The translations under genes and the position numbers were made by a program. From positions 588,626-652,625 of the forward strand of contig CAKVFE010000001.1 in assembly GCA_934746645.1 (NCBI GenBank): DNA of 64,000 nt, written 5' to 3'. The notes beneath the pieces were generated by a model. That model had not been told where the DNA came from. It saw only the letters and a program-made list of their open reading frames with translations, and made no database searches. Shown here piece by piece: positions 15,172 to 56,692 of the stretch; the first letter of the stretch is position 1; every line of letters starts with the position of its first letter. Source of the DNA: an uncultured Clostridia bacterium (lineage in GTDB: Bacteria > Bacillota > Clostridia > Christensenellales > UBA1242).

Positions 15172-15204
15172 ATTTTTCAACCCCTTAAATAATGTTTAAC
15201 TTAA

Positions 15205-29588: not shown

Positions 29589-29673
29589 TACGATATTTCC
29601 TTTATATAATATTTAACTTTCTGTCAAAAACTCTCATATTTATGTCAAATAGTAATTATCTAACACCATATTG

Positions 29674-31617
<1,944 letters not shown>

Positions 31618-32139
31618 TTAAACAAAAAAATTTTTACTTCAATTTGGATTTTAACCCATTTTAAGTAAATTATCACTATATATATAATAATATATATTTA
31701 AGAATAAGTAAAGTATTTATTATAAATATATATATTATATAATATATATAACATTAAAAATGCACTGTAAAGACTTATATGTCATCAATTAATATAATTT
31801 GTTTAACTTTTTACTTTTGTGTCATACAAGCCAAAATTTAAAGTCTAGGCAATAATAGCAAATATTGGATTATGTCTGTTTTTGTAAATACAAATCACAC
31901 AACCTTTACCTTTTACCACTTGTTACTTATCAAACAAAGTTTACATTTAGAAAAAAATATATGCTACTATGTGTAACATATATTTTGGTTTGTAATGTTT
32001 TATTATTAATATTTAATTGTCGTCATTTAAGCATTAACATTTTTGTGTTAACTATTAGTTATTGATATTGGTGTATTGTCATTTAGTTGTTTACGCTTAG
32101 CTATTAATATTTTAGTATCAACATTAGTTATTAATACTT

Positions 32140-33987: not shown

Positions 33988-34077
33988 ATTCACTCCTTAT
34001 TATGTTAATAATATTTTCTATGCGTAAAATATTTTTTTTGATAGACTTTTTTAGCAAGTTTAGTCTTGCATTTTAGT

Positions 34078-34105
34078 TTGAAAAAGATGTATATTAAGAT
34101 ATAAT
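34078..34105 (+). promoter_or_regulatory. candidate sigma-A promoter of recF-dnaA(-dnaN); would give a leaderless recF mRNA
   Basis: TTGAAA (34078-83), 16-nt spacer, TATAAT (34100-05). The recF ATG lies 8 nt after the -10 element, and no SD is visible. Confidence 0.45.
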
Positions 34106-34112
34106 AATATAT

Positions 34113-35207
34113 ATGGAAATAAAAAGTATTCAGTTAAAAAATTTCCGTAATTATACTTCTCAGCAAGTTAATTTTAAAAACGGACTTAATATTTTAGAAG
34201 GCAAAAATGCTCAAGGTAAAACCAATTTACTAGAAGCAATTTTTTTGTGTGCTATTGGTAAAAGTCCTCGTACTAAGAAAGAAAAAGAACTTGTAAAATG
34301 GAACGAAAATATGGGTAAGGTTACGATAGAATTTTCCAAACTTACCGGTAATAAAAAAATAGAGTTGTATTTGTTTTCTAATCAAAACAAAGCTATAAAA
34401 ATAAATGGCGTTCCTATAAAAAAATTGGGCGAACTTATGGGCGAACTTAATGCAATATATTTTTCGCCAGACGAACTTAAACTTGTCAAAGAAAGTCCAG
34501 AAGAAAGAAGACGCTTTATGGATATAGACTTATGTCAATTTGATAAGAGATATTTTTATACTCTCAACAAATACAACAAAATCCTAGACCAGCGTAACAA
34601 ACTTTTAAAATCTGGCAACAATCAAAGTATAAAAGATACTATCAGTATCTGGAACGAACAACTTGCCGAACAAGCTTGTTATATCATTATTAAAAGACTT
34701 CAGCTTGTCGAACAACTAAAAATTTATGCCGAAAAGGCACATTATTATTTGACCGACAACAACGAAAAAATGACATTGGAATATGTTGGACTTAACACTG
34801 TAGACAAAGACACCTTAAAACAAGAACTTCTTAATCTATATGATAAGAGTTTAGAAAAAGATTTAAATCTTGGATTTACTACAGTTGGTCCACATAGAGA
34901 TGACTTAAAAATATCTGTCAATGATATAGATGTAAGACATTTTGGTAGTCAAGGTCAACAGCGTAGTTGTGCATTGAGTCTAAAACTAGCCGAATTGGAG
35001 ATATTTAAGTCCAACCTTAAAGAATATCCAGTCCTATTATTAGATGATGTATTGAGCGAATTAGACCTATCTAGACGAGAAAAATTACTAAAGATAATCA
35101 ATAATTTTCAAACTATACTTACTTGTACCGAATACAATATTGATTTGCCTGCCAATGTATTAAAAGTTGATAGTGGCAAAATTGTTGATAGTTATACACA
35201 AAGTTAA
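34113..35207 (+). CDS. recF: DNA replication/repair protein RecF
   Basis: 'LKNFRNY', Walker A 'GKNAQGKTNLLEAI', signature 'GSQGQQRS', Walker B 'VLLLDDVLSELD'. Confidence 0.93.
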   Translation: MEIKSIQLKNFRNYTSQQVNFKNGLNILEGKNAQGKTNLLEAIFLCAIGKSPRTKKEKELVKWNENMGKVTIEFSKLTGNKKIELYLFSNQNKAIKINGVPIKKLGELMGELNAIYFSPDELKLVKESPEERRRFMDIDLCQFDKRYFYTLNKYNKILDQRNKLLKSGNNQSIKDTISIWNEQLAEQACYIIIKRLQLVEQLKIYAEKAHYYLTDNNEKMTLEYVGLNTVDKDTLKQELLNLYDKSLEKDLNLGFTTVGPHRDDLKISVNDIDVRHFGSQGQQRSCALSLKLAELEIFKSNLKEYPVLLLDDVLSELDLSRREKLLKIINNFQTILTCTEYNIDLPANVLKVDSGKIVDSYTQS

Positions 35208-35283
35208 TATTTAATTTTGCTTACCTATCTTTTTGTGATATCATAATAAATGCAATTATTAAAAAATAAAAAAGGAACTACTA

Positions 35284-36627
35284 ATGTTAAAGATTGATGA
35301 AATTTGGCAAAAGACCTGTATAATACTTCAACACGAAGTTACAGCTGTATCTTATGACTTATGGATAAAATCCTTAGAGCCATTAGATTATACTGACGGA
35401 GTGTTGTATCTATCTACTTCTAGCGAAACAGCCAAACAAAGAGTATTGAAGTTACACGAAAATCAAATTAGGACTGCTCTTAATGAGATAGAACCTGAAA
35501 TAAAAGATTTTAAAGTACTTGACCCAGATGAAAAAGAAAATTATTTAAACAAACCTGTTGAAGCCGAACAAGAAGTTAATAAGACTACCCCATTATGCAA
35601 ATTTATACCTAAGTACACTTTTGATAATTTTGTAGTCGGCAACTCCAACAAATATGTTTATGCTGCAGCAAGAGGTGTAGCCGAACACCCATTTGATAAG
35701 ATAAACCCACTATTTATATATGGTGGCGTTGGACTTGGCAAAACACACTTGTTACACGCTATAGGCAATTATCTTACAAAGCACAATCCAGAACTAAAGA
35801 TACTTTATGTTACTTGTGACCAATTTACTCGTGACTATGTAGAAAGTCTTAAAAGTAGCAATATGCAAGCCAACATTGAATATAAAGAAAAATATCGTAG
35901 CGTAGATGTACTTATGATTGACGATATCCAATTTATAGCCAATCGTACAGGTACTCAAGAAGAATTTTTCCATACCTTTAACGACTTGTATCAAAATCAA
36001 AAACAAATCATTATTGCTTCAGACCGTCCACCAAAAGAGATAGCAAGCCTTGAAGAAAGACTAAGAAGCAGATTTAGTATGGGTCTTATGCAAGATATCC
36101 AAACTCCAGATTTTGAAACAAGACTTGCAATCTTGCAAAAGAAAGCTTTACAAGACAAATATAGTGTAGATGAAGAAGTTATCAATTTTATAGCCGAACG
36201 CTGTGATACCAATATAAGAGAACTTGAAGGTATGCTAAGTAAAGTAAGTTTTTATGCTAGCCTTACCGGCAAACCTAGTGCTACCCTAGAAGATGTCAAC
36301 GAAGCTCTAAAAGACCAAGTTACTACTACAAAACAAAGTCTTACAGCTGACCGTATTATTGATTGTGTATGTAAATATTTTAGTATCTCTAAAGATGACC
36401 TTGTAGGTAAAAAGAAAAATAAAGAGATAGTCGAACCTAGACAAATATGTATGTACCTAATATGCGAAATGCTTGACCTTCCACTAGTAAGCGTAGGTCA
36501 AATATTTGGTGGTAGAGACCATACAACAGTTATACACGCAAGAGAAAAAATAAGTGACCTAATTAAAGAAAACAACCGTATTAGAGTTACTGTCAACGAC
36601 CTAAAGAGTATGGCCAATCGCACATAA
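35284..36627 (+). CDS. dnaA: chromosomal replication initiator DnaA
   Basis: 'FDNFVVGNSN', Walker A 'GGVGLGKTHLLHAIG', 'LMIDDIQF', and DNA-binding domain IV 'GGRDHTTVIHA'. Confidence 0.97.
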   Translation: MLKIDEIWQKTCIILQHEVTAVSYDLWIKSLEPLDYTDGVLYLSTSSETAKQRVLKLHENQIRTALNEIEPEIKDFKVLDPDEKENYLNKPVEAEQEVNKTTPLCKFIPKYTFDNFVVGNSNKYVYAAARGVAEHPFDKINPLFIYGGVGLGKTHLLHAIGNYLTKHNPELKILYVTCDQFTRDYVESLKSSNMQANIEYKEKYRSVDVLMIDDIQFIANRTGTQEEFFHTFNDLYQNQKQIIIASDRPPKEIASLEERLRSRFSMGLMQDIQTPDFETRLAILQKKALQDKYSVDEEVINFIAERCDTNIRELEGMLSKVSFYASLTGKPSATLEDVNEALKDQVTTTKQSLTADRIIDCVCKYFSISKDDLVGKKKNKEIVEPRQICMYLICEMLDLPLVSVGQIFGGRDHTTVIHAREKISDLIKENNRIRVTVNDLKSMANRT

Positions 36628-36840
36628 AACACACCAATTTGTGGATATGTTGATAACTTTTAAAAGTTATACACCGAGTTATACACAATTAAAAACACTA
36701 CATATTGTGGTGTCAATGACGAAATAAAGTCATTTAAAAGACTATAGGTTGTGTTTTTGATAGGTTGTCCACATTTGCACAGTGCTAATAATAATAATTA
36801 TAATTAAAAAAATAATAATTTTACTTTAAGGAGAGAAAAA
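36628..36840. other. oriC: oriC (dnaA-dnaN intergenic origin with DnaA boxes, GC cluster, TAA trios and AT-rich unwinding tract)
   Basis: Four 9-mers each within one mismatch of TTATCCACA: TGTGGATAt 36640-48, TTATaCACc 36667-75 (two mismatches), TTATaCACA 36679-87, TTgTCCACA 36765-73. They are followed by 'tttGCACAGTGC', (TAA)4 at 36786-97 and a pure A/T tract to ~36830. Confidence 0.75.
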
Positions 36841-37941
36841 ATGAAATTAATTTGTGATGGTTTGGATTTGTCCGATGCAGTTATGAAAGTCATAAAAGCA
36901 ACTAGTCAAAAGACTACTAATCCAGTACTAGAAGGTATCAAACTTGTAGCTGAAGATGATACACTAACATTAAGTGCTACTGACCTAGAACTTTCTATGG
37001 AAAAAAGTATTAAAGCCGAAGTATTTATTGATGGCGAAACAGTTGTACCGGGTAAATTTTTTGCAGAGTACATAAAGAAACTTACCAACGAACAAATCGA
37101 ACTTACCTGCAACGAAAGAAATATGTTGGAGATAAAGTATACAGATAGTACTGGTAATATCCAAGCGTTAAGTGCTGAAGAATTCCCTACTATGAAAAGA
37201 CTTGAAAATGCTGAGTATTTTGAGATAACATCTAAAGATTTAAAATCTCTTATTACTAAATCAGTATTTTGTGTATCTACAGAAGATAGTAGACCAATAC
37301 TAAAAGGTGTATTGTTTGAGATATCTGATAAGAAGATAAAAGCAGTTGCACTAGATGGTTATAGACTTGCTATGGTTAATAAAGACCTTATCAATAGTTC
37401 TTCCAACTTTACTTGCATTGTTCCTGCTAGAAGCTTAAACGAAATAAGCAAACTTTTGGAAGACAGTGACACAGTTATTAAAGTACATGTAACCAAAAAT
37501 TATTTAATGGCAGATGTCAACGATACTAAGATAATAACAAGATTGTTGGAAGGTGATTTTATCAATTACAAACAAATCATTCCTACACAATTTACAACCG
37601 AAGTTACTATCAACAAAGCTCAACTTGAAGATGCCCTAGATAGAGCAAGCCTACTTAGTCGTATAGACAGAAACAACTTAGTTAAGTTTGATATTACAGA
37701 CAAACTTATGATGTTGAGTAGTAAGAGTGATATTGGAGATATTAAAGAAAACATTACAGTTGCTCTTACAGGTAATGATTTAACAATTGCATTTAATGTA
37801 AGATACTTTAATGAAGCATTAAGAGTTATTAATGACGAATTTATCAAACTAAGCTTTACTGTTCCTTCTGCTCCTTGTATTTTAAAGAGTAGCGAAACAG
37901 ACGAATATGTATATCTAATACTTCCTGTTAGAGTTGTTTAG
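36841..37941 (+). CDS. dnaN: DNA polymerase III beta sliding clamp
   Basis: 366 aa with SD 'aaggagag'. 'RPILKGVLFE', 'LDGYRLA' and C-terminal 'YLILPVRV'. Confidence 0.95.
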   Translation: MKLICDGLDLSDAVMKVIKATSQKTTNPVLEGIKLVAEDDTLTLSATDLELSMEKSIKAEVFIDGETVVPGKFFAEYIKKLTNEQIELTCNERNMLEIKYTDSTGNIQALSAEEFPTMKRLENAEYFEITSKDLKSLITKSVFCVSTEDSRPILKGVLFEISDKKIKAVALDGYRLAMVNKDLINSSSNFTCIVPARSLNEISKLLEDSDTVIKVHVTKNYLMADVNDTKIITRLLEGDFINYKQIIPTQFTTEVTINKAQLEDALDRASLLSRIDRNNLVKFDITDKLMMLSSKSDIGDIKENITVALTGNDLTIAFNVRYFNEALRVINDEFIKLSFTVPSAPCILKSSETDEYVYLILPVRVV

Positions 37942-38186
37942 TATATAAAAAAAGAGAGCATATAATAGCTCTTTTTTTATTGCAGTTTTTAGCTGACTTT
38001 GTTTTTATTGTAGATTATTAATTAAATATTTATATATTTATCTAAAATATTTTTTATATTAAAACTAAAAAATTAGAACATAAATAAAGACAAAAAATCT
38101 TTTTAGTAATATTTAAATTGGATATTGCAAATGTATATTTATTTTGTTAAAATAAAGTCGTAGTTATTAATAATCTAAAAAGGAAA

Positions 38187-39203
38187 ATGATTATGAAAAC
38201 ATATACAACTTTAGATAAAAAACTAAACTATGATTTTGAAATTTTAGATCACGATAGTGATACAGACTGGAGAGATTTTGAACTTTTAGGTAAAAGTGTA
38301 TATCCTAAAGAATTTGAGATACTAAGCAATGAGTCTTCTACTTGGGGTGGTTGGGATTATGTTACTGAAGACAATGGCTCTTGTTTTTTAGATGATGTAA
38401 TATTTTTAAAACAAGACAATAAGCGTATTGGTTGTGCTGTTGTGGCCAAACAATCCAATATCTATAAAAACATAAATATTAGAAAACATACATTGTCTTT
38501 AAAATATCTTATATTAGACCCTGCTATAAAAGATACCAATGCAAGTAGTTGTCTACTTAATGCAGTGTTTGATTATGCTAGAGAAAATGACTACGAACAA
38601 GTCGAATTTGTGGCTGATATTGATACTAGAAAATTTAAAGAATCAGACAATGTTTATCTATTAAATGGTGCTAATAGCATATCTGTCAACAAAGGCAAAA
38701 ACGACACAACTAAAAAAGTATTTTTCCGTTGTGATGTTGATAGTCAACTTAGAGATATATCTAAAGCTGTATTTGAAAGTTTTAAAAGACTATATAAAAA
38801 AGATTTAAATGCAATAGACGAAAAAATCTTAGAAAACGAAATAGCAAAAAGATACTGTTGTATAGTTAAGTCTAAAAAGAAACTTACTAAAGATGATATT
38901 GAAAGAATCAAACAAAGTACCCTACTTAAAGATTTGTCTATCACTTTAAAAGATATGGTTAAAAATAAAAACGAATCAGACCCAACACGAAATACTATAG
39001 AATGGCTAAAATACCATAAAGTTATTAAGACAATATTGCCTGTAATTAAAAAATCAAGTGTTGTTAGCGACTTAAGCAAAGTACAACATTTTGACAAAGT
39101 CGAACGCATAATGTGTGGAGTTGCTGACGAGTTGAAAAATGAAACTAATGTAAGTCTTATCAAAAACAATCTTGATAGTGGCGAACTAAGTAGACTACAA
39201 TAA
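38187..39203 (+). CDS. hypothetical protein (338 aa) with possible N-terminal GNAT-like fold
   Basis: Long ORF between dnaN and rpmH. 'IGCAVVAKQ..LKYLILDPAIKDTNASSCLLNAVFDYARENDYEQVEFVAD' is GNAT-like but lacks a clear Q/RxxGxG/A motif. The C-terminal half is Lys/Glu-rich and helical. Confidence 0.55.
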   Translation: MIMKTYTTLDKKLNYDFEILDHDSDTDWRDFELLGKSVYPKEFEILSNESSTWGGWDYVTEDNGSCFLDDVIFLKQDNKRIGCAVVAKQSNIYKNINIRKHTLSLKYLILDPAIKDTNASSCLLNAVFDYARENDYEQVEFVADIDTRKFKESDNVYLLNGANSISVNKGKNDTTKKVFFRCDVDSQLRDISKAVFESFKRLYKKDLNAIDEKILENEIAKRYCCIVKSKKKLTKDDIERIKQSTLLKDLSITLKDMVKNKNESDPTRNTIEWLKYHKVIKTILPVIKKSSVVSDLSKVQHFDKVERIMCGVADELKNETNVSLIKNNLDSGELSRLQ

Positions 39204-39257
39204 TACCTATATTGTTGGAGTAAAGATACAAAACTAGTTAAAAATGAAAATTAACAG

Positions 39258-39286
39258 TTGACACATAAATACTAAAAAAGTATAAT
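39258..39286 (+). promoter_or_regulatory. consensus sigma-A promoter for rpmH
   Basis: TTGACA (39258-63), 17-nt spacer, TATAAT (39281-86). Confidence 0.75.
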
Positions 39287-39364
39287 AAGACAGCAAACTA
39301 ATAAATTATAAGCGAGTTAGACTCGCTTTTATTTAGAAATAAAGAAAGGAAGGACACTATTACT

Positions 39365-39499
39365 ATGAAAAGAACATATCAACCTAAAAAAAGACAACGC
39401 AGTAAAGTACATGGTTTTAGAGCTAGAATGAAAACTAAAGGTGGAAAGCGTGTTATCGCACGCCGTAGAAACCGTGGTAGAAAAGTTTTATCTGCGTAA
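39365..39499 (+). CDS. rpmH: 50S ribosomal protein L34 (below the ORF-track size cutoff)
   Basis: Hand translation gives [46 protein letters not shown] 'aaggaagg' upstream. Confidence 0.95.
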
Positions 39500-39540
39500 G
39501 TTTTGTATTGGCGAAAAACAAATCAATATAACAAATAATT

Positions 39541-39571
39541 GCCTTTAACTTAGTTTAAAGGCTTTTATTTT
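39541..39571 (+). terminator. intrinsic terminator after rpmH
   Basis: GCCTTTAA (39541-48) / TTAAAGGC (39555-62), then TTTTATTTT. Confidence 0.75.
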
Positions 39572-39717
39572 ACATTGGACAAAAAAATCTAGTTAAAATA
39601 ATTTAATAAATATAAGTGCTTATGATATACTCTATATGATGTTAAAATATTTTATTGGTATTTTGACTAGACCTACTGATTGATATATTCAATCAAAATT
39701 TTAATAAGAGAGAAAAT

Positions 39718-40056
39718 ATGCTTAACGAAGTAAATAGACTCACAAAAAGAAAGGAATTTGGTTATATATACAAACACGGTAAGTATTGTTATAACAACTA
39801 TCTTACTTTAATGTATGTACCTACTAAATTAAAACAACCTAGAATTGGTTTTTCGGTAAGTAAAAAGACTGGTAAAGCGTGGCTTAGAAATAAGACCAAA
39901 CGCCAACTTAGAGATATAGTAAGAAAAATGATAGATAGTATCAATCCTTGTTACAATTATGTTTTTATTACCAAGCCCGAAATAACCACACTAGATTACA
40001 ATAAGATAAAGGAAGCAGTGGTTGATGTTTTAACCAAAGCAAATTTAGTAAAATGA
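39718..40056 (+). CDS. rnpA: RNase P protein component
   Basis: 'RLTKRKEFGYIYKHGK' and the RNR-like motif 'RNKTKRQLRDIVR'. The TGA stop overlaps the yidD ATG (ATGA). Confidence 0.9.
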   Translation: MLNEVNRLTKRKEFGYIYKHGKYCYNNYLTLMYVPTKLKQPRIGFSVSKKTGKAWLRNKTKRQLRDIVRKMIDSINPCYNYVFITKPEITTLDYNKIKEAVVDVLTKANLVK

Positions 40057-44496: not shown

Positions 44497-46336
44497 TGTT
44501 ATAGTTATAGGCTCTGGACACGCAGGCTGTGAAGCTTGTCTTGCTAGTGCCAGAATGGGACATAAAACTTTGCTATTGACTCTTAACCTAGATAGCATAG
44601 CTTTTTTGGCGTGCAATCCAAGTATTGGTGGTACTGCTAAAGGACATTTGGTATGCGAAATAGATGCTTTAGGTGGCGAAATGGGTGTCAATGCTGATAA
44701 GACAACTATACAACGCCGTATGCTTAATAGTTCTAAAGGACCAGCTGTCCAATCATTAAGAGCACAAGCAGACAAAGTTATGTATCATACCGAAATGAAG
44801 AAAACTCTTGAAAACACCCCTAACCTATTTATAAGACAAGGCGAAGCAAAAGAAATTTTGACTCACAACAACAAAGTAACAGGTGTAAAGACTGTACAAG
44901 GCGATACCTATATGGCAAAAGCTGTTGTTGTATGTACTGGTGTATATTTAAAGAGTGATGTTATTATTGGTAAAGTAAGACAAAACAGTGGACCTAATGG
45001 GTTTGCGCCTGCCAACCACCTAACTAAGTCATTAAAGAAGTTGGGATTGACTATAAGAAGATTTAAGACCGGTACACCAGTAAGAGTACATAGTGATAGT
45101 ATTGATTATAGCGAACTAGAACCACAATGTGGCGAAGACGATATTCAAACTTTTAGTTTTATGACTAAGAAAGCACCTAAAAATGTTATCAAATGTTATT
45201 TGACTTATACCAATTTGGATACTCATAAACTAATATTAGACAACTTAGATAAAGCACCTATGTACAATGGCGAAATCAAAAGTGAAGGACCTAGATATTG
45301 TCCAAGTATTGAGAGCAAAGTTGTAAGATTTAGTGATAAAGACCATCATCAATTGTTCTTAGAGCCAGAAGCATTGTCTACTAAAGAAATCTATGTTCAA
45401 GGTTTTTCAACTTCAATGCCTACTTACCTACAATATCAAATGGTACATACAATAAAAGGTCTTGAAAATGCTCACATTATGCGTGACGCTTATGCTATAG
45501 AATATGATTGTATAGATAGTTTACAGTTGTACCCTACACTTCAATATAAAGGCTGTGACGGACTTTATTTTGCTGGACAAGTAAACGGAACAAGTGGATA
45601 TGAAGAAGCAGGAGCGCAAGGAATAATAGCTGGTATCAATGCAAGTCTATATGTAGACAACAAACCTCCTTTTGTATTAAAGCGAAACGAAGCTTATATT
45701 GGTGTTTTGATTGATGACCTTACTACCAAAGGTACCAACGAACCATATCGTATGATGACAAGTCGTGCCGAATATAGACTACAACTAAGACAAGATAATG
45801 CAGATTTAAGACTAACACAGCGTGGTTATGATATAGGTCTTGTTACTAAAGAAAGATACAAAAAATATTGCAAAAGAGTAAAAGAAATTGAAGACCTTAG
45901 ATCTAAATTAAATACCACATTTAACCCAAAACAAGTAGAACAATTATGTGTTGAAAGTGGCGAATCTCTACCAAAGTCAGGTATCTCTTTAAAAGAACTA
46001 TTGAAAAGAAGTAATATAACGGTTGAAAACTTTGTTAAGTACTTCCCAGAATATAACGTATATCCAAAAAATGTTTTAAAAGAAATAGAAATCGAAGTAA
46101 AATATGAAGGATATCTACAAAAACAAAATCAACAAATAGAAGATAGCAAGCGTCAAGAATGTACTGCACTTAGTCAAGATATGGATTATAGCAAAATAAA
46201 AGGTCTAAGAATGGAAGCTAGACAAAAACTAAACGCTGTTAAACCATTGACTTTGGGACAAGCAAGCCGTATTAGTGGTGTAAGTCCAGCAGACATTGCT
46301 GTATTGACTGTATATCTAAAGACAATAGCTAAATAA
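44480..46336 (+). CDS. mnmG: tRNA uridine 5-carboxymethylaminomethyl modification enzyme MnmG (GidA)
   Basis: Start taken at 'MNEKYDVIVIGSGHAGCEA' (FAD dinucleotide fold). 'GPRYCPSIE' and 'LYFAGQVNGTSGYEEA'. Confidence 0.95.
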   Translation: MNEKYDVIVIGSGHAGCEACLASARMGHKTLLLTLNLDSIAFLACNPSIGGTAKGHLVCEIDALGGEMGVNADKTTIQRRMLNSSKGPAVQSLRAQADKVMYHTEMKKTLENTPNLFIRQGEAKEILTHNNKVTGVKTVQGDTYMAKAVVVCTGVYLKSDVIIGKVRQNSGPNGFAPANHLTKSLKKLGLTIRRFKTGTPVRVHSDSIDYSELEPQCGEDDIQTFSFMTKKAPKNVIKCYLTYTNLDTHKLILDNLDKAPMYNGEIKSEGPRYCPSIESKVVRFSDKDHHQLFLEPEALSTKEIYVQGFSTSMPTYLQYQMVHTIKGLENAHIMRDAYAIEYDCIDSLQLYPTLQYKGCDGLYFAGQVNGTSGYEEAGAQGIIAGINASLYVDNKPPFVLKRNEAYIGVLIDDLTTKGTNEPYRMMTSRAEYRLQLRQDNADLRLTQRGYDIGLVTKERYKKYCKRVKEIEDLRSKLNTTFNPKQVEQLCVESGESLPKSGISLKELLKRSNITVENFVKYFPEYNVYPKNVLKEIEIEVKYEGYLQKQNQQIEDSKRQECTALSQDMDYSKIKGLRMEARQKLNAVKPLTLGQASRISGVSPADIAVLTVYLKTIAK

Positions 46337-46417
46337 TTAAGTCATACTTATTGATATATATAACTTATAAATAATATAAAGTATTTAAATTAAAAGCATA
46401 TAAATAATATAAAATAA

Positions 46418-46448
46418 GAGCATTGTAATATAAACAATGTTCTTTTTT
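46418..46448 (+). terminator. intrinsic terminator after mnmG
   Basis: 9-bp stem 46418-26 / 46434-42 (one G-U pair), then a T-run 46443-48. Confidence 0.7.
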
Positions 46449-46833
46449 ATATCTTTTATAGCGAAAAATAGCAAAATATGTAGTATGTTATATAATAATA
46501 ACTAAAAATAAGTTATTTTGTAATAACTAATAAAATTTTTGAGATATAAAATAAATAAAATAAACAAAATTGACTTTAAAGTTATAAAATAATAACTATT
46601 ATTATTTAATAAATTAAGCTAAGTATAGGGTATAGTTGAATATAATAACAAAAGATATTGTTGTTATAAGTGTTGGTAGCTGATTAATGATGTGATTTGG
46701 TTCTGATGTAAAATATTAGGTTTATATTAAGGATAGAATGGAAACATTACGAAGACAAAATATGTAGATTAATCTGTAGATTATTGTTTTGTTTTTAATA
46801 ATTTATAGTGTTAAAGTGTATTAAAAATATGCT

Positions 46834-46884
46834 TGCGTCTATATAAAATTATTGTATTTGGCTAATAAAATGAATATGCGTCTA
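46834..46884. repeat. two copies of the GC-cored motif (A/T)TGCGTCTA
   Basis: 'aaaaatatgctTGCGTCTAtataaaatt' (core 46834-41) and 'ATATGCGTCTA' (46874-84). Confidence 0.7.
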
Positions 46885-47110
46885 ACGATTTTATTATATT
46901 AATTTTAATTAAATTTTAGTTAAATATTTTAACTAAATTTAATCTCTTAATTGCTATAAATTCATAGCTTAGAGATGTGGCGAAAGTTTATGATTTGATT
47001 GTTTATACCGACAATATTAATATAATTTTGGTCTATTATCTGATATAATTATCCGGTATTAATATGATTAATTATTTATACTTTAAGTTGTAATTAAGTG
47101 TGTATAAGGG

Positions 47111-47235
47111 TGCAAATTTTGCATCTAAATTTAACTAAAAATTGCTAAAGAATAATAAAATATCAACTCAAAAATTAAACAAAAATTGTGCAAATTTTGC
47201 ATAATTTTATGATTGTAAAAAGTGCAAATTTTGCA
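47111..47235. repeat. three exact copies of the 13-bp palindrome TGCAAA-T-TTTGCA
   Basis: Exact copies at 47111-47123, 47189-47201 and 47223-47235 (the third extends to GTGCAAATTTTGCAC). They lie in ORF-free DNA. Confidence 0.85.
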
Positions 47236-47823
47236 CTTTTATTATTAAATCATATTAAAATATAGTGATTCTGTTCCATTATTTTAAATATAGCGAATTT
47301 ATAGAAATTTAGGCTTAAAAATATATTAATTTTTTTAAATTAGCGACTTTCGTGATTTTAGATGATATATTGGTCATTTCAAGTTGTTTATTTACGATAA
47401 TATTGGATTTTTGATACATTTTCATATATTTTGTCCAAATAATTTGCAATTTGATGGTTTTTTACTGATTTTTTGGTGTTTATATTGATGGTTTTATTCT
47501 TTAGCATTAAAAATATTGATTTTAAGCTTCATTGCTGATTTATTTGGTAATTTTATCTAAAATATAGCAAATATTAGGGTATATTGATAAATCGGTAATA
47601 TATTTATCTTTTGTAATGTATATAATTTGCTACAGCTAATTATTTTTATTCTTTATAGTTAACAATAAATAATATTGTTTAAGAGTAGGTAATGGTATTA
47701 TATAGAATATATTAAATATTGATATCCAATTTTACTTTATGTTTGTCTTATTTTACTAATTGTGGTATACTTAATATATAATAAAAATGTCGTTAATTTT
47801 ACAATTTTTACAACAAAATATTG

Positions 47824-47834
47824 TAGACGCATAT
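47824..47834. repeat. TAGACGCATAT (reverse orientation of ATATGCGTCTA)
   Basis: Exact 11-mer 21 nt upstream of parS-1. Overlaps the spacer/-10 of a possible rsmG promoter (TTACAA 47808-13 ... TATATA 47832-37). Confidence 0.7.
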
Positions 47835-47855
47835 ATAAAATTGTTAAAAAATCAA

Positions 47856-47871
47856 TGTTTCACGTGAAACA
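47856..47871. other. parS: parS centromere site 1 (perfect TGTTTCACGTGAAACA)
   Basis: Perfect 16-bp palindrome matching the Bacillota parS consensus TGTTNCACGTGAAACA. It ends 15 nt before the rsmG ATG. Confidence 0.9.
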
Positions 47872-47886
47872 TTGTGTGGAGTGTGT

Positions 47887-48597
47887 ATGGATTTTAAAGA
47901 AGAATTAAAACAAGTATTTGGTAATTATAATATAGATGTTAATGATCAACAAATTGCTTTATTTGATAAGTATTACCAACTAATATTGGAGTGGAATGAA
48001 AAGTTTAACTTAACAACTATATTACAACAAAGAGATGTTATAATTAAACATTTTTTGGATAGTTGCTTAGTTTGTGAGAGTTTAAAGGATAATGCTACAT
48101 TAATCGATGTTGGGGCTGGAGCAGGTTTTCCATCTATTCCAATTAAAATACTTAGACCTGATATTGGTATAACTATGATTGATGGCTCTAATAAAAGGGT
48201 TACCTTTTTAAATGAGTGTATAGATAAATTAGGGCTAAAAAATGCTTGCGCTATACACGAAAGATGTGAAATATTGGCTCATAAACCAGAATATCGTGAA
48301 AAATTTGATTATTGTGTAGCTAGGGCAGTGGCAGAATCTAATGTGTTGGCAGAGTATTGTTTGCCATTTGTTAAGTTATTTGGATATATGATAGCTTTTA
48401 AATCTCGTAATATCGAAGAAGAACTTGAAAAAGCTAAAAACTCTATAGAACTATTGGGTGGCAAAGTAACTGATATAAAAAATACATATATTGAAGAAAT
48501 TGATGCTGAGCGTAATTTGGTGTTTATCCAAAAGAAGTTTAAAACTCCAGTTAAATATCCTCGTGGTCAAAATAAACCAAGAACCAATCCACTATAA
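47887..48597 (+). CDS. rsmG: 16S rRNA (guanine527-N7)-methyltransferase RsmG (GidB)
   Basis: Start moved to the ATG at 47887 (SD GGAG 47878-81). 'NLT...HFLDS' and SAM motif 'LIDVGAGAGFPSIPIKI'. Confidence 0.9.
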   Translation: MDFKEELKQVFGNYNIDVNDQQIALFDKYYQLILEWNEKFNLTTILQQRDVIIKHFLDSCLVCESLKDNATLIDVGAGAGFPSIPIKILRPDIGITMIDGSNKRVTFLNECIDKLGLKNACAIHERCEILAHKPEYREKFDYCVARAVAESNVLAEYCLPFVKLFGYMIAFKSRNIEEELEKAKNSIELLGGKVTDIKNTYIEEIDAERNLVFIQKKFKTPVKYPRGQNKPRTNPL

Positions 48598-48689
48598 TAT
48601 TAGCATTATATTAATAAAATCACTTTAAATTACCCATATTTACATAAAATATGGGGTAGTGCATAGATAATTTAATAAAAAATATTAGA

Positions 48690-48716
48690 CTGTAGTTATC
48701 TACAGCCTTTTTATTT
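48690..48716 (+). terminator. weak intrinsic terminator after rsmG
   Basis: CTGTAG (48690-95) / CTACAG (48700-05), then 'cctttttattt'. Confidence 0.45.
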
Positions 48717-49006
48717 GCCTACTTTGTGGTATGTTATACTATGCTGTTATTGTATACTATGCTGTTATATTGTAATATCTATAGATACTAATTTTTTTAA
48801 TAAAATATATTACTGTTTATATTGTGTCTATATGAATACCAAAAACCCGATTTTTTTTATGTCTTATATCTTATATAGTATATGGTGGATAGTGTATGGT
48901 GTTGTGGTCTATTGTATGTATGTGTCTATGTCATGTTTTTTATGTTAAGCCGATTAAGTTTTGGCTGTTATAATATGTTTGTTTTTGCTTGATTTACCCC
49001 TAAAAA

Positions 49007-49022
49007 TGTTTCACGTGAAACA
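49007..49022. other. parS: parS centromere site 2
   Basis: TGTTTCACGTGAAACA embedded in the 26-bp perfect palindrome AAAAATGTTTCACGTGAAACATTTTT (49002-49027). Confidence 0.9.
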
Positions 49023-49146
49023 TTTTTATACTCCCCATTGTTTTTATTAACTTTTTATGTGTATATAAAATGGCTTAATTAAGCCATTATTTTGTACTGA
49101 TATCAGATATAAGAAAACTTTCCAAAATTTTTTTCTTGCTTAAAAA

Positions 49147-49162
49147 TGTTTCACGTGAAACA
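49147..49162. other. parS: parS centromere site 3
   Basis: The same 26-bp palindrome repeated exactly at 49142-49167, 140 bp from site 2. Confidence 0.9.
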
Positions 49163-49731
49163 TTTTTAACCTGTTTATCTATAGTAAAGGCGAATAATCT
49201 ATCAACAATAACTGTCTTATCATTTTAACCACATACTATAATAAGATGATTACAGTGTGTTGTATTGTTATGTGTATTGTTATGTTTAATATATTATGTC
49301 TTTGTCTTTAATTAAACATTTTTAGTTCGCTATATAGTAAATCTTAAATGTGTTTATTTTGATAGCTATTATTTATAAATCATTGGTATGATATTGTGTA
49401 TTGTCTTTTAGCCTATTTTTGATTTTTTTGTGCTTTACTGGTATATGTATGTGTACTAATGTTAATTAGTATTAATTATGCCTAACAATAAATAATGTTG
49501 GATTAAGTATATTTGGTACTATATTTATATTTAATTTTAAATAAAATTTGTTATTAAAATTAGGATAAATACCTATTTTATTGACGCAATACCATATTTT
49601 TATTGTTGTGTCAAAATTTGTATATATATCTTAACTAAATTTGTAAAAAAGATATATTTTAATTTCCATTTTTCATATATATTTGATATAATGTATATAC
49701 AATTAATAATAACTAATAAGGAAGTGATTTA

Positions 49732-50502
49732 ATGGGTAAAATTATTAGTTTCATCAATCAAAAAGGTGGCGTTGGTAAAACAACCACTTGCGTAAATATG
49801 GCTAGCTATTTGGCTGTTATGGGTAAAAAAGTGCTTCTTTTAGACTTAGACCCACAAGGCAATGCTACAAGTAGTTTGGGTATAGATAAAGAATCTGGCT
49901 TAAAGACAATATATAATGTTATTGTTGATGATAATTTGCTAGATGAAGTTATTATGAAGTCAAAATTGGATAATTTGGACATAATACCAAGTAATGTAGA
50001 CTTAGCTGGAGCTGAAATTGAGCTTGTTCAAATGAATAATAGAGAAAAGGTTGTTAAAAAGATATTGCAACCTATAAAAAATAGTTACGACTATATTTGT
50101 ATTGACTGTCCACCAAGTTTGGGACTAATTACAGTTAATGGTCTTACAGCTAGTGATTCTTTAATTATTCCTATTCAATGTGAATATTTTGCTATTGAAG
50201 GTCTTACACAATTGATGTATACAATCAAATTGGTTAAAAAACACCTAAATCCAGACATTGCAGTTGAAGGTGTTGTATTAACAATGAAAGACGCAAGAAG
50301 TAATTTGGGTAATTCGGTTGCTGCTGATGTAAATAAGTACTTCAATAATAAAGTTTATGATACAATTATCCCTCGTAATATTAGACTTGCAGAAGCTCCA
50401 AGTTATGGTGAACCAATATGTATGTATGATCCAAAATGTAACGGAGCTATTGCATATCGTACATTAACTGAAGAATTTTTGAAGAGAAACAACGACAAAT
50501 AG
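49732..50502 (+). CDS. parA: chromosome partitioning ATPase ParA/Soj
   Basis: Deviant Walker A 'NQKGGVGKTTT', 'LLLDLDPQGNAT' and 'DYICIDCPPSLG'. Confidence 0.93.
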   Translation: MGKIISFINQKGGVGKTTTCVNMASYLAVMGKKVLLLDLDPQGNATSSLGIDKESGLKTIYNVIVDDNLLDEVIMKSKLDNLDIIPSNVDLAGAEIELVQMNNREKVVKKILQPIKNSYDYICIDCPPSLGLITVNGLTASDSLIIPIQCEYFAIEGLTQLMYTIKLVKKHLNPDIAVEGVVLTMKDARSNLGNSVAADVNKYFNNKVYDTIIPRNIRLAEAPSYGEPICMYDPKCNGAIAYRTLTEEFLKRNNDK

Positions 50503-50720
50503 TCATATTTGTGTGTAATTTTCGATATTTATATTCGTATTTACATTTGTGTGTATATAATGTGTAATATCAGATATACAGCAAAAGGCTGTGTATAAAT
50601 AGTTGATATCTATGTTTTATATTAAAATATATTGAAAATACAAGAAAAATAGTTAAAATTACCACTAAAAGTGACAAAAACTAATGAAAATAACTAAATT
50701 TTAGATTAAAGGATAAAAAT

Positions 50721-51611
50721 ATGGATAATAAAAAAGGTTTAGGCAGAGGATTAGGTAGTTTACTTGGAATATTTGATGATGACGACAAAGAAGTAGAAGT
50801 TAAAAAAGATGCTTCAGGTAAAATTGAAGAAATCAATGGAGAAAGAGTTGTTGATATTGATATAAAACTTATTGATGTCAATCCTAACCAACCTCGTAAA
50901 AATTTTGACCCTACAGCACTAAAAGAATTGGCTGATTCTATCAAATTACACGGCGTTATTCAACCTATTATTGTTAATCAAACAGGTAGTAGATACATTA
51001 TAGTTGCCGGTGAAAGAAGATTTAGAGCTAGCAAGCTTGCTGGATTAAAGACAATACCTGCTATTGTTAAAAATTATACCGAACAACAAGTAAAAGAAAT
51101 ATCTTTGCTTGAAAATATACAGCGTGAAGATCTAAATCCAGTAGAAGTTGCCAACGCAATGAAAGAACTTCTTGATATTTATGGTTGGACACAAGATGTA
51201 TTGGCTGATAGATTGGGTAAAAGTCGTCCAGCTATTGCTAACACACTAAGATTGTTGACTCTTCAACCAGAAGTACTTGCTTTGATTGAAAGTGGAAAAC
51301 TTAGTGCAGGTCATGCAAGAAGTTTGGTTGTTGTTACTGACCCAGCTACACAAGTTAAACTTGCTAAATTGGCAGTAAGCAAAAAAGTAACTGTTAGAGA
51401 TTTGGAAAAGACTGTTAAACAACTTACCAATCCAACAGCAAAGAAAGTTAAAACAGAACCAAGTGCCGAACTTAAAGAATTAATCAATCTTATGCAACAT
51501 AAGTTTGCAACAAAAGTAAGTGTTATGGGTACAGATAAAAAAGGTCGTATCTATATAGATTATTATTCTAGCGATGACTTAGACAGAATACTTGAATTTC
51601 TTAATAAGTAA
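50721..51611 (+). CDS. parB: chromosome partitioning protein ParB/Spo0J
   Basis: 'GLGRGLGSLL', 'NPNQPRK.F', 'GVIQPIIV', arginine patch 'VAGERRFRA' and HTH 'QDVLADRLGKSRPAIANTLRLL'. Confidence 0.93.
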   Translation: MDNKKGLGRGLGSLLGIFDDDDKEVEVKKDASGKIEEINGERVVDIDIKLIDVNPNQPRKNFDPTALKELADSIKLHGVIQPIIVNQTGSRYIIVAGERRFRASKLAGLKTIPAIVKNYTEQQVKEISLLENIQREDLNPVEVANAMKELLDIYGWTQDVLADRLGKSRPAIANTLRLLTLQPEVLALIESGKLSAGHARSLVVVTDPATQVKLAKLAVSKKVTVRDLEKTVKQLTNPTAKKVKTEPSAELKELINLMQHKFATKVSVMGTDKKGRIYIDYYSSDDLDRILEFLNK

Positions 51612-51720
51612 TATTTCAACTAACAGTTAATTATATAATATGTTGTTGATATATCTATCAAAATAAAACTAATAAGTTTTGGATATAAAAGTAATAAATT
51701 AAAATTAAAGAAAAAATAAA

Positions 51721-51749
51721 AATATGGTTATTTTGACCATATTTTTTTA
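51721..51749 (+). terminator. intrinsic terminator after parB
   Basis: AATATGGT (51721-28) / ACCATATT (51736-43), then a T-run to 51749. Confidence 0.7.
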
Positions 51750-52374
51750 TTAAAAACCTTCAAAAATCGCTCAAAAATGTGTCATTTAAACGCATTCTGA
51801 GCGACTTTCGTATTTCTAAATGACCAATTGGTCGTCTTTTTTATAGCAATTTTAGTGATTTTTTATACCAAAATCATATAATTTGGGATAGAAAAATTTT
51901 GTTTATAAAATATTAATAACACAGATAATATTGATATCTATCTTTAGATTACTATGTTACCTATATTAAAAATAATAATTATCAATTATTATTATATGGA
52001 TTGAATTACATTCCTACTATAATGATTTTATTTTAGTAATCAATATTTAAAAGAACTTAAAATATTAACTTCCAATATTCAATCTATTCAATATTGTTAT
52101 TTCTATTTAATATCTATAGTTTACTACATTTATAAGATTAACATAATATTAAGATAATAGGGAAGTATGACACTATTACATATTTACATTTTTTATCTTA
52201 TTTATAATATATGTTTATCATACCTGTTTGTTTTTTTGCTCTAATTAGTCCATTTAATTTAAGTATTTTTTACTCTTATCTTTCATTAAGTTTGTTTATT
52301 TGTTACCCATATTATATATCGATTATCCATAATCATTTAATAAAAATACTAAAAATAGCTTTTTACAAAATGCG

Positions 52375-52449
52375 TAGACGCATATAGTTATTTGCTTTTT
52401 TACACTTATTAAGTTGTCAATACCAAACTAAAAATATGCTATGCGTCTA
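52375..52449. repeat. two further copies of the GCGTCTA/TAGACGC motif
   Basis: 'atgcgTAGACGCATAT' (52375-85, exact 11-mer in reverse orientation) and 'aaaaatatgctATGCGTCTAaatatttt' (core 52441-49). The flank is nearly identical to the copy at 46823-50. Confidence 0.7.
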
Positions 52450-52576
52450 AATATTTTAATGATTTTTGCATTTTAGATTGGTATCTCATTAATAAAATCA
52501 TATAGATAATATAAGAATACAAAAAAAGTACTTAAACCTAAATTTAAGTACTTTTAATTTTCTTTGTTTTTAATAA

Positions 52577-53302
52577 TTAATATTTAACTACAACAGTTTC
52601 GCCATCTGGCATTGTTACAGTAACTTCGCCTTCTTGACTATCAGCTGGAGTTTCAGCAGGTGTTTCTTCTTCAGTCTTATCACCAGCTGCACCTTCTTGG
52701 TTTTTACCTAATACATCATCAATTCTGTCTTGAAGAGTTTTAGTAACCCATTCATTAACATATCCGTATACAAAGTTACTCATTTTGTTCTTTTCCATTA
52801 AGGTTTTAACACCTGTAACACCACAAATACTTAATATAGATGCAAGACCTAAACCTACGCAACCTAATAAGAAACCTTTTGCAGCACCGAAGATTAAACC
52901 TAGAACTCTGTTAAGTCCACTTAATGCAGAACTACCACTTGTTGCATTGTCAAATAATTTTGATAGTAACCAAATAACAAGTTTAATTAATAACCATACA
53001 GCCAAAATTGATATGATTACTGTACAAGCATTACCAATTTGTGCTGCAGTATATGTTTTTCCAAATACTGTTGCACCGTCTGCATTGATCCAACCCCATT
53101 TTTGTAGAAGTTTACTGAAGAACTCATTGGCTTTGCACATTTTATTAAGTAGAGCAGCAACATGTTTGCTTACCAAAATAGCAACTACAATTGATAATGC
53201 AGAACTAAAAATGCTTAAAATGGATTCAAACAAGCCCTTGCAGATACCAACAATAGCAAATATTACTATTAAACAAATAAATACAATATCTACCCAACCC
53301 AT
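52577..53302 (-). CDS. cvpA: CvpA-family membrane protein
   Basis: 'MGWVDIVFICLIVIFAIVGICKGLF..' is a typical CvpA N-terminus. Four TM spans and an acidic Thr/Glu C-terminal tail. Confidence 0.75.
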   Translation of the reverse strand: MGWVDIVFICLIVIFAIVGICKGLFESILSIFSSALSIVVAILVSKHVAALLNKMCKANEFFSKLLQKWGWINADGATVFGKTYTAAQIGNACTVIISILAVWLLIKLVIWLLSKLFDNATSGSSALSGLNRVLGLIFGAAKGFLLGCVGLGLASILSICGVTGVKTLMEKNKMSNFVYGYVNEWVTKTLQDRIDDVLGKNQEGAAGDKTEEETPAETPADSQEGEVTVTMPDGETVVVKY

Positions 53303-54277: not shown

Positions 54278-56692
54278 TTGGATAATAAGAATAAGAAAAA
54301 AAGTACAAGTACTAGTATTATATCTTTAATACTTATAATACTTTCAGTAGTCTTGATTTTTTATATAGGCAATAGAGGTACCAATGGCAAACAAGTTGAT
54401 GTTGGTGCAGCTTACAATATGGCAGAAAATCAAGAGATAAGTGATATATATTTCTATGGTGGTGTAGCCAAACTTAGAAAGTCAGATAGCAAAATCAGTG
54501 ACAAACAATGGCCAAAGAATGCTGACTATTATTTTGAATATACTACTACTATCGAAATGCAACAATTTTATGAGTTGAGCAAAAACATTGACTGTGCTAA
54601 AGGACTTAGAGAATTTGATGCAACAATTTCAGCAGAACAACAAGCAGAAATAACTTTAAAATATAAAGATTACAATCGTATTGTTGTTACATCTGCTCCA
54701 GTTAAAGCAAGCTTGCTTTCAACATTGTTGCCATATATGAGTGTTATTGTTGTATTGGTTATTGGCATACTTATGTTTAAGATGCTTAGTGGCAAAGGAC
54801 AAGGTGCAGGTGGATTTGCTAAGAGCAAAGCAAAACTTAACGAAAGAACAAATATTAGATTTTCTGATATAGCTGGTGCAGAAGAAGAAAAGGAAGAAAC
54901 ACAAGAAATTGTTGAGTTCTTGAAAAATCCAGCAAAATTTAAAGCACTTGGTGCAAGAATCCCTAAGGGTGTATTGCTTGTAGGCCCTCCAGGAACAGGT
55001 AAAACATTGCTTGCAAAAGCAGTTGCTGGTGAAAGTAATGTACCATTCTTCTCAATCAGTGGTTCTGACTTCGTAGAACTTTATGTCGGTGTCGGTGCTG
55101 GTAGAGTAAGAGATTTGTTTGAAACAGCTAAACGCAGTGCTCCTTGCATTATATTTATTGACGAAATTGATGCAGTTGGTCGTCAGCGTGGTGCTGGACT
55201 TGGTGGTGGCAATGATGAAAGAGAACAAACACTTAACCAGTTACTTGTAGAAATGGACGGTTTTGAAAGTAATGAAGGTATTATAGTTTTAGCTGCAACC
55301 AATAGAGCAGATGTACTAGACCCTGCATTATTAAGACCAGGTAGATTTGATAGACAAATTTATGTTAATGTTCCAGATGTTAAAGGCCGTGAAGGTATTA
55401 TGAAAATTCACGCTAAAAACAAACCTATTGACGAAAGCGTCAACTTTACCGAAATCGCTAGATTGACTAGTGGATTTACTGGTGCAGACATTGAAAACTT
55501 CCTTAACGAGGCAGCAATCTTAGCTGCAAGAGATAATAGATTGACTATTACTATGGAAGACATAACAGAAGGTATTAATAAAGTATTGGTTGGACCTCAA
55601 AAGAAGTCTAGACTAATAACTCCAGAAGATAAAAAACTTACTGCATATCACGAGTCAGGTCACGCAATCCTTGCTAAGATGCTTAACTATGGTGATGCAG
55701 TTCACGAAGTATCAATTATACCTCGTGGTATGGCTGGTGGATTTACTTCTACTAGACCAGAAAATGATAATGACCACTTGTTCTACAAAAAATTGTGTGA
55801 CAAAATTAGTATGACAATGGGTGGTCGTATTGCAGAAGAAATCGTATTTGGCGATATCACTGCAGGTGCAAGTTCAGATATTAGTCACGCAACAGATATT
55901 GCTAGACGCATGGTTACCGAATGGGGTATGAGCAAGCGTCTTGGATTTATCAATTATGGCAAATCTAATGAAGTATTTATTGGTCGTGATTATCAAACAC
56001 AAGTTAATTATAGTGAAGAAACAGCATCTATTATTGATGAAGAAATAAAAGCAATTATGGATTCTTGCTATGAAAAAGGTAAAAAGATATTGACCGAAAA
56101 TAGAAATATTTTGGACAATATGGCAAAACTACTTATAGAAAAAGAAACTATATATAGTGAAGAAGTTGACGCTATCATTAAAGGTGCTAACTATGAAGAT
56201 GTAGCAAAAGCATTGGACGAAAAAGAAGCTGAAGCTAAAAAGCGTAATGAAGAACGCAAGAAAAAAGCAGAAGTTGAAAACTTTAAGAAAATGCAAGAAT
56301 TAAAAATCAAAGCTGCAGAAGCATTGACTAATGCAGGAGTCATTACAAAACAAGATTTTGAAATGATTAAAAAAGAAGCTATGTCACAATCTAGTCCTGA
56401 TGAAAAATCAGAAGAAGCAAAATCTGAAGCTGAAAAGCGTACAGAAATAGAAGCTAAAAAAGAATTGGATAATGAAGCAAGCGAAACTACAGAAGAAAAA
56501 ACTGAAGTAGAAACTCCTGTAGTAGAAGTTGTGGAAGAAAAAGTTGAAACAAAACCAGAAGAAAAACCAGTTAAGCGTACAACAAGAAGTACAAAAACAG
56601 GAACAAAAACTTCTGCTACTAAAAAATCAACAACAACTAAAAAGACTTCTAAAACAAAAAAATCAGAAACTAAATCAGACGATAAAGAATAA
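54278..56692 (+). CDS. ftsH: ATP-dependent zinc metalloprotease FtsH with ~190-aa Lys/Glu/Thr-rich C-terminal extension
   Basis: Probable TTG start at 54278 (SD GGAGGA 54264-69, 8-nt spacer). '[17 protein letters not shown]', 'IIFIDEIDA', '[19 protein letters not shown]' and zinc site 'HESGHA'. Confidence 0.92.

Follow-up and report, generated by a model that had tools for sequence, protein, structure and literature searches.

We analysed a 64,000-nucleotide stretch of DNA (the window; contig CAKVFE010000001.1, positions 588,626 to 652,625) from an uncultured gut Clostridia lineage whose DNA is AT-rich (30% GC), and followed up a short GC-cored motif found around its parA and parB partition genes. 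The genes run in the order gyrA(-), gyrB(-), glmS(-), recF, dnaA, dnaN, X, rnpA, yidD, yidC, jag, mnmE, GNAT, mnmG, spacer I1, rsmG, spacer I2, parA, parB, spacer I3, cvpA(-), yyaC and ftsH. The three spacers are unusually long and have a GC content of 21-24%. They hold no credible open reading frame (ORF), only low-complexity, AT-biased small frames, and no gene is called in them in seven assemblies of the same species, which we defined by a ParA identical to that of the window (L081-L087). A search for parS that allowed up to three mismatches returned three sites, at 47856, 49007 and 49147, all of them perfect, and one weak genic match. The motif recurs around these sites and at the outer ends of the locus, and comparison with related genomes indicates that it is a genuine cis-element, conserved, specific to the clade and linked in position to the parS cluster. 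The features of the locus are as follows.

46337-47871: spacer I1, about 21% GC, without a credible ORF; contains copies 1-3
46834-46841, minus strand: copy 1, core TGCGTCTA on the plus strand, extended form TAAAAATATGCT-TGCGTCTA-TATA; kept in L081-L084 and L086
46875-46884, minus strand: copy 2, TATGCGTCTA on the plus strand; same orientation as copy 1, at a distance of 43 bp
47762-47770, plus strand: putative extended -10 element of the rsmG promoter (TGGTATACT), proposed from an alignment and a promoter scan
47824-47833, plus strand: copy 3, TAGACGCATA, in the rsmG leader, downstream of the TGnTATAAT-like -10 element
47856-47871: parS-1 (TGTTTCACGTGAAACA), directly upstream of the rsmG ribosome-binding site
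47887-48597, plus strand: rsmG
48598-49731: spacer I2
49007-49022: parS-2, within a 28-bp repeat
49147-49162: parS-3, within the second copy of the 28-bp repeat
49581-49590, plus strand: degenerate copy TTGACGCAAT, intergenic, at the upstream edge of a conserved parA control block
49732-50502, plus strand: parA (soj)
50721-51611, plus strand: parB (spo0J), the sole ParB-family gene found in the window
51612-52576: spacer I3, between the convergent genes parB and cvpA; contains copies 4 and 5
52375-52384, plus strand: copy 4, TAGACGCATA; 8 of 8 core columns invariant in the seven assemblies
52440-52449, minus strand: copy 5, TATGCGTCTA on the plus strand; inverted relative to copy 4, 67 bp start to start

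The 28-bp repeats (TAAAAATGTTTCACGTGAAACATTTTTA) that enclose parS-2 and parS-3, at 49001-49028 and 49141-49168, are identical to each other, and one strain group (L081, L086) carries a single copy of this parS repeat.

The motif is enriched in the spacers around rsmG, parA and parB

The preliminary description had reported an exact 11-mer, ATATGCGTCTA, at 46874-84 (+), 47824-34 (-) and 52375-85 (-), and we recovered all three occurrences. The near-copies that it listed are also present, as a one-mismatch 11-mer at 52439-49 and as the 8-mer core TGCGTCTA at 46834-41. Its total of five copies is correct for 8-mers in the spacers around rsmG and parAB but misses the degenerate further copy TTGACGCAAT at 49581. 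Counting the 11-mer against shuffled sequence, as had been suggested, proved a weak test: with up to one mismatch and within the window alone, there are four occurrences against 0.94 expected, and 2 of 100 shuffles reach four.

The 8-mer TAGACGCA occurs six times in the window, compared with 0.77 expected, and none of 100 shuffles reaches six. Within the 12.1 kb of intergenic DNA it occurs five times against 0.066 expected (p about 1e-8), and an unbiased count of all 8-mers ranks it as the second most enriched intergenic word, behind parS words. The other intergenic regions of the window, about 20 in number, contain no copy of the motif. The sequence covered amounts to 64 kb of this genome and 9-21 kb per relative, and use of its edge proteins to extend the window added about 1.2 kb at the left end and none at the right. 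The sixth 8-mer (55903-55910) sits inside ftsH, whereas the earlier description had noticed no copy within genes; it is identical in all assemblies and is an apparent coding coincidence.

We aligned 20 copies in one orientation and found nearly all of the information in TA-TGCG-Y-C-T-A, with a weak A-tract and a weak T-tract about 11 bp either side of the site centre. The core is a 10-bp pseudo-palindrome about a central CG (TAGAC-GCATA, generalised as TAKRC-GYMTA, with the hyphen at the centre), and the consensus for the clade is T-W-G-R-Y-G-C-A. This pseudo-palindromic form explains the free orientation of the motif and points to a binder that is a dimer. Window copies 1 and 5, copy 5 of L087 and both copies of L098, a related species introduced below, have a longer form, AAAATATGCTATGCGYCTATATATTTT, in common. 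The long flank previously noted as common to copies 1 and 5 (TAAAAATATGCT(A)TGCGTCTAWATA) is real, and recurs at both L098 copies. The string TATATAAAATT, reported to follow the copies at 46834 and 47824, follows opposite motif orientations and varies between strains, and is thus not part of the element. The inverted repeat ATGCGT-AG-ACGCAT at 52375 can be read in the window but is not kept in L081, L084 and L087.

The core is conserved within the species

Throughout spacers I1, I2 and I3, the seven conspecific assemblies all align colinearly with the window. Their gene sequences match those of the window at 95-99% nucleotide identity, and I1, which is 87.5-90% identical to that of the window, has diverged about as much as four-fold degenerate sites, or more. 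Each copy of the motif was found at its syntenic place wherever a conspecific locus covers the position, with one T>C change in one strain (copy 2 of L082; copy 2 is otherwise kept). The core columns of I3 are invariant, compared with 58% of I3 columns (p = 1.6e-4), and in I1 the excess of invariance in the core columns is marginal (p = 0.025).

The I3 spacer of L087 is only 67% identical to that of the window and is largely unalignable. Copies 4 and 5 are nevertheless present in L087 at a spacing of 66-67 bp, and together with the DNA between them they make up one of only three conserved I3 islands. Conservation between L087 and the window also begins exactly at the degenerate copy at 49581.

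The motif brackets the parS cluster in related species

Relatives were obtained through RsmG homologues (L001-L004, L088, L089 and L096-L100; 71-80% RsmG identity). The nearest species representatives, at 75-79% RsmG identity, are metagenome-assembled genomes labelled Christensenella sp. UBA6345 or "Clostridia bacterium". Apart from promoters, parS and a small number of short blocks, the spacers of the relatives cannot be aligned with those of the window. The motif stays conserved as its flanks drift.

In nine lineages, comprising the window's species and eight relatives, a core of the form T[AT]G[AG]CGC[AT] stands on the left of the parS that comes first upstream of rsmG, at a distance of 24-36 bp; it is oriented one way in five of them and the other way in four. 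The representative in the window is copy 3, which lies 24 bp to the left of parS-1 (35 bp centre to centre) and has counterparts in L001, L002, L004, L088 and L096-L099. The core reads TAGACGCA in the window, L001, L002 and L004, TAGGCGCA or TAGGCGCT in L088, L098 and L096, and TTGACGCA in L097 and L099, while L003 and L089 have the variant TAGGTGCA at the same left-flank place. Six lineages also have a core beyond the last parS. This second copy, close on the right of the parS nearest to parA, is present in L002, L004, L096, L098 and L003/L089. By eye, L088 has the variant TACGCGCT to the right of its last parS, and L001 has CTGACGCA beside its middle parS. A hand count places the core at about 15 of 18 outer parS flanks, compared with 1-2 of 44 inner flanks. 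In the histogram of motif-to-parS gaps from all fetched loci there is a peak at 20-49 bp, with 18 matches against about 3 expected.

We then looked beyond these genomes. The more distant relatives L091 and L094 are without the element, and a 7-mer screen around parS in 26 AT-rich loci found nothing beyond the clade. A metagenome scan for parS-N15-45-TAGRCGCA returned 98 stretches, all from unrelated organisms, with a flat gap distribution and no new clade members; many of these stretches come from the start of mnmG, which encodes a GAGHAG motif, and the scan serves as a negative control. Thus, the absence of the element from L091 and L094 and the flat gaps in the metagenome indicate that the association with parS is specific to the clade, and not a general property of parS flanks.

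The relatives differ from the window in the content of their spacers. In L001, L002, L004, L088 and L096-L098 a Band_7/SPFH gene lies on the minus strand between mnmG and rsmG. It is replaced by 1.0-1.7 kb of non-coding, 21% GC DNA in the window's species, L003 and L089, and a tblastn search of I1 for a Band_7 pseudogene found no remnant. Between parA and parB, an ASCH-domain gene of 110-116 aa is present in L088, L089 and L096-L098 and is absent from the window (50503-50720). A degenerate extra parS (TGTTCCATGTGAAACA or TGTTTCATATGAAACA) occurs in the parB-cvpA spacer of L003 (11638), L089 (10555) and L088 (10787), with a TAGACGAT word about 64 bp to its left in L003 and L089; I3 of the window has no parS.

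Spacing between the motif and parS follows the turns of the helix

Measured centre to centre, the motif and parS are separated by 42-44 bp in ten cases, 52-54 bp in four and 63 bp in one, and these clusters match whole numbers (4, 5 and 6) of B-DNA turns. Tested for a period of 10.5 bp, the distances gave R = 0.73 (p about 6e-5) with a phase near zero. The exceptions to the phase are copy 3 of the window (35 bp), L088 (49 bp) and a probable false match (32 bp). On the parA side, the gap between the motif and parS keeps to the helical phase, whereas its gap to the start of parA ranges from 125 to 183 bp. The motif is non-random, conserved, free in its orientation and locked in position to parS.

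A candidate site for a protein acting with ParB

A conserved core, the bracketing of parS, helical phasing and free orientation make up the pattern expected of a protein site coupled to parS. The motif is probably a protein operator. Our preferred reading, which we hold tentatively and at somewhat less than even confidence, is that it is a candidate site for a sequence-specific, probably dimeric DNA-binding protein that acts with the ParB-parS complex. We infer from the sequence patterns both the binding of a protein at the motif and any involvement of ParB. The earlier proposal of boundary or operator sites is supported in part, on the strength of the conserved core, its bracketing of the parS cluster in relatives, the phasing and the free orientation, but a role in limiting the spread of ParB is conjectural, and a plain operator of rsmG and parA stands as a rival to it.

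We propose an ancestral layout in which each end of the parS cluster would have been flanked by one site, placed just beyond the outermost parS and 4 or 5 helical turns from its centre. At whole-turn spacing, a bound protein would face the parS-bound ParB dimer, and a small dimeric protein could thus occupy the side of the helix that ParB occupies at the outermost parS. By analogy with KorA and KorB of plasmid RK2, such a protein may stop or lock ParB-CTP (cytidine triphosphate) clamps that slide out from parS, or may otherwise cooperate with the partition complex. Stopping or locking the clamps would set where the partition complex ends and would protect the promoters on either side, those of Band_7 or rsmG on the left and parA on the right. 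In the species studied here the spacers would have grown. The left parS-adjacent site would have been retained, the right one replaced by a site at the upstream edge of the parA control block, and two extra pairs, at the outer ends of I1 and I3, would create a bracketed domain of 5.6 kb.

Several points weigh against a site coupled to parS. The parS-adjacent copy of the window itself, at 35 bp, lies about 7 bp nearer to parS than the 42-44 bp seen in relatives and so falls off the shared helical phase, as does that of L088 at 49 bp. The regular expression for the core was picked after the data had been seen. Because the lineages share ancestry, the left-flank spacings are partly inherited and are not independent, and on this flank the position relative to parS is inseparable from that relative to the rsmG promoter and ribosome-binding site. 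Copies 1, 2, 4 and 5 lie 1-3 kb from any parS, so that any coupling there would be indirect. No candidate binder was identified among the roughly 40 window proteins (Pfam, NCBIfam), where only a distant TetR and a HicAB pair were seen, and no small ORF in the spacers encodes one. The distribution of the motif is known only from the coverage given above, about 64 kb of this genome and 9-21 kb per relative, and with coverage so limited the motif may belong to a genome-wide regulon.

Alternative explanations

The alternative that survives best is an ordinary operator, through which a local or global regulator would co-regulate the rsmG and parAB promoters, and perhaps transcripts of I1 and I3, with no link to ParB. 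The closeness of parS would then simply reflect that parS shares the same control regions. We consider this somewhat less likely than the parS-coupled reading. Copy 3 lies between the conserved -10-like element, a TGnTATAAT-like sequence that aligns upstream of rsmG in five species, and the rsmG start. The copy at 49581 heads the conserved parA control block, a small orientation-free pseudo-palindrome is typical of dimeric regulators, and on the left flank the motif keeps its distance from the promoter as well as it does from parS. However, the placement relative to the two genes is unequal, at about +55 from the rsmG -10 element compared with 95-180 bp upstream of the parA start, and it is the distance to parS that is quantised in helical turns. 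Copies 4 and 5, furthermore, lie between convergent gene ends that need no promoter, in DNA with no significant RNA structure or ORF, and the motif is missing from the other 20 or so intergenic regions of the window.

It is very unlikely that the copies are neutral leftovers, that is, old insertion ends or local duplications without present function in fast-evolving, AT-rich spacers. Copies 1 and 5 do share about 25 bp, and the I1 spacer has taken the place of a Band_7 gene still found in relatives, so this DNA has turned over. Against this, the core is invariant while its flanks diverge, it occupies the same parS-relative place in species with unalignable spacers, and a GC-rich 8-mer would be unlikely to survive five-fold by chance in 21% GC DNA. 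The preliminary description had raised terminal remnants of an old insertion as its own alternative. That alternative finds no support, since the rsmG-parA-parB block is ancestral and syntenic across the clade, not inserted, and the parS-adjacent copy predates the species. Similarity between copies also ends after 10-25 bp, and we found no terminal inverted repeats, target duplications or mobility genes.

Sites for a recombinase or invertase are more improbable still. Inverted copies (2 and 3, or 4 and 5) would permit inversion and direct copies (1 or 2 with 5) excision, exact 11-bp inverted repeats are present at 46874-84 and 47824-34 and at 52375 and 52440, and the orientation of the motif differs between species. 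However, the seven colinear assemblies show no rearrangement relative to the window, the flips in other species are confined to the 10-mer and do not include the DNA between copies, excision would remove essential partition genes, and no recombinase gene lies nearby; the 57 bp between copies 4 and 5 would also be very short for an invertible segment. Equally improbable is a motif that functions in RNA, whether as a site of processing or binding within the rsmG leader and spacer transcripts or as the stem of a copy 4-5 hairpin: copy 3 is probably in the 5' untranslated region of rsmG and copies 4 and 5 are able to pair in a 10-bp stem, but at one and the same position the motif faces either way with respect to the transcribed strand, depending on the species, folding of 52362-52462 scores no better than that of shuffled sequence (z = -1.35) and there is no Rfam match.

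Comparison with known elements

We compared the motif with known classes of element. It resembles parS in its locus, its similar size, its palindromic tendency and its strong intergenic enrichment. It differs in being unrelated to the 16-bp parS palindrome TGTTNCACGTGNAACA; the three perfect parS sites are separate, and no parS match with up to three mismatches coincides with the motif. DnaA boxes (TTATCCACA-like 9-mers) cluster only at 36640-36773 and are unrelated to it in sequence. The Noc-binding site was rejected as the identity of the motif, and no noc paralogue lies between rsmG and parA.

The ram site of Bacillus subtilis, TGACGCCGGCGTCA, is GC-rich, is located near the origin, contains GACGC/GCGTC, comes from a spore-former lineage and serves a centromere-associated anchoring protein. 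Ram is a 14-bp GC palindrome scattered over the origin region, whereas the motif is a 10-bp pseudo-palindrome whose copies, within 64 kb, are confined to the par locus. The two have only GACGC in common, and no MerR-type or RacA-like gene was seen in the window.

The ends of a miniature inverted-repeat transposable element or insertion sequence were rejected, as an alignment of the regions around copies 1/2 and 4/5 stays within the range of shuffled scores beyond about 25 bp, and an inverton was rejected by the colinearity of 7 of 7 assemblies. Only copy 4 scores as an intrinsic-terminator hairpin, and its left arm is not conserved. Promoters for sigma-A (-35 TTGACG), extracytoplasmic function sigma factors (-10 CGTC) and sporulation sigma factors were set aside because no consistent partner hexamer was seen by eye and the orientation flips. 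No Rfam 15 family matches the window at the gathering threshold, and at E<=5 the region 46300-52650 gave chance-level matches only. Resemblances to cre, the Spo0A box, SpoIIID and the met-box are partial matches only. As far as we can tell the motif is previously undescribed. A full-text literature search for the 10-mer returned only primers and Flp recognition target (FRT) constructs.

Parallels with ParB clamps and their roadblocks

The nearest precedent comes from plasmid RK2, where KorA bound at its operator OA is reported to stall and lock the ParB-family CTP clamp KorB at defined places (PMC11790492), and other reports describe DNA-bound proteins as roadblocks to ParB sliding in vitro (e.g. 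PMC9242446, PMC7725951, PMC8299390). The KorA/OA-KorB/OB system is similar to the arrangement considered here in having a short palindromic operator of a small protein near the loading site of a ParB-family clamp. A ParB-family CTPase (50721-51611) is encoded at our locus with loading sites nearby, the parS sites being 24 bp to 3.3 kb from the copies; the locus thus combines a cluster of parS sites, a gene for ParB and a site on the outward flank. In contrast, no partner gene was found in or beside the par operon, where the spacers and the plus-strand frames overlapping parA and parB hold no plausible ORF of at least 30 aa. There is no helix-turn-helix or ribbon-helix-helix protein near the locus, and a binder could be encoded elsewhere in the genome. 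The locus is chromosomal whereas RK2 is a plasmid, and the motif is unrelated to the OA sequence (GTTTAGCTAAAC).

The helical phasing with parS provides indirect support for the idea that a KorA-type partner may stall or lock clamps at the motif. A stronger proposal, that the ParABS system of this clade has a fourth dedicated component, a site-specific protein that, from a 10-bp operator placed 4-5 helical turns beyond the outermost parS sites, caps or locks ParB-CTP clamps and sets the borders of the centromere as a chromosomal counterpart of KorA-KorB, seems to us doubtful and quite unlikely. The likeness to roadblocks lies in the position of the motif directly beyond the outermost parS, a place at which sliding ParB would run into a bound protein. 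To our knowledge, the known ParB roadblocks are incidental or engineered, the only dedicated clamp-locking partner is KorA, from a plasmid, and a conserved, helically phased flanking site for a chromosomal parS has not been described.

A conserved, helically phased site flanking parS offers a concrete, testable handle on what sets the size and the edges of chromosomal ParB partition complexes and on their regulation. Covariation of the site variants TAGACGCA, TAGGCGCA and TAGGTGCA with a protein family could reveal the binder. Should the motif be an ordinary operator, it would still define an unrecognised regulation of rsmG and parAB in a common uncultured gut lineage.

Origin region and other sequence elements

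A scan of the window located clustered DnaA boxes at 36640-36773, in the dnaA-dnaN spacer, and no cluster in I1-I3. The cumulative GC skew has its minimum near 34 kb. Together, the boxes and the skew place the motif locus 10-16 kb from oriC. The dnaA-dnaN spacer is 213 bp long and is the only site of clustered boxes. The origin layout (26955-40056) is unusual, in that recF-dnaA-dnaN and the genes from rnpA to parB are all on the plus strand, with gyrB-gyrA and glmS diverging in the opposite direction. Elsewhere in the window, a HicA/HicB toxin-antitoxin pair lies at 14740-15453 and a TetR regulator at 10696-11337, both unrelated to the motif.

Two further elements were observed in the spacers. 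A 15-bp palindrome, GTGCAAATTTTGCAC, is present in three copies within 130 bp of I1 (47108-47126, 47187-47201 and 47221-47235). The copies are kept in most conspecific assemblies and are absent from other species, and a fourth palindrome of this type (CTGCAAATTTTGCTT) occurs in I3 of L083 and L087; these palindromes may represent a second operator family. The other element is a block of about 55 bp, AAACGCATTCTGAGCGAyTTTCGT...AATGAnnAATTGGTC, at 51785-51840, with a partial second copy at 47341-47375. Its sequence is conserved in L001, L002, L003, L088, L089 and L098, and its position shifts: it is usually 100-170 bp upstream of parB, but lies downstream of parB in the window and upstream of parA in L002. 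The block folds well in the window (z = -4.3) and its alignment is without covariation, and for the latter reason it looks like an element that acts at the DNA level.

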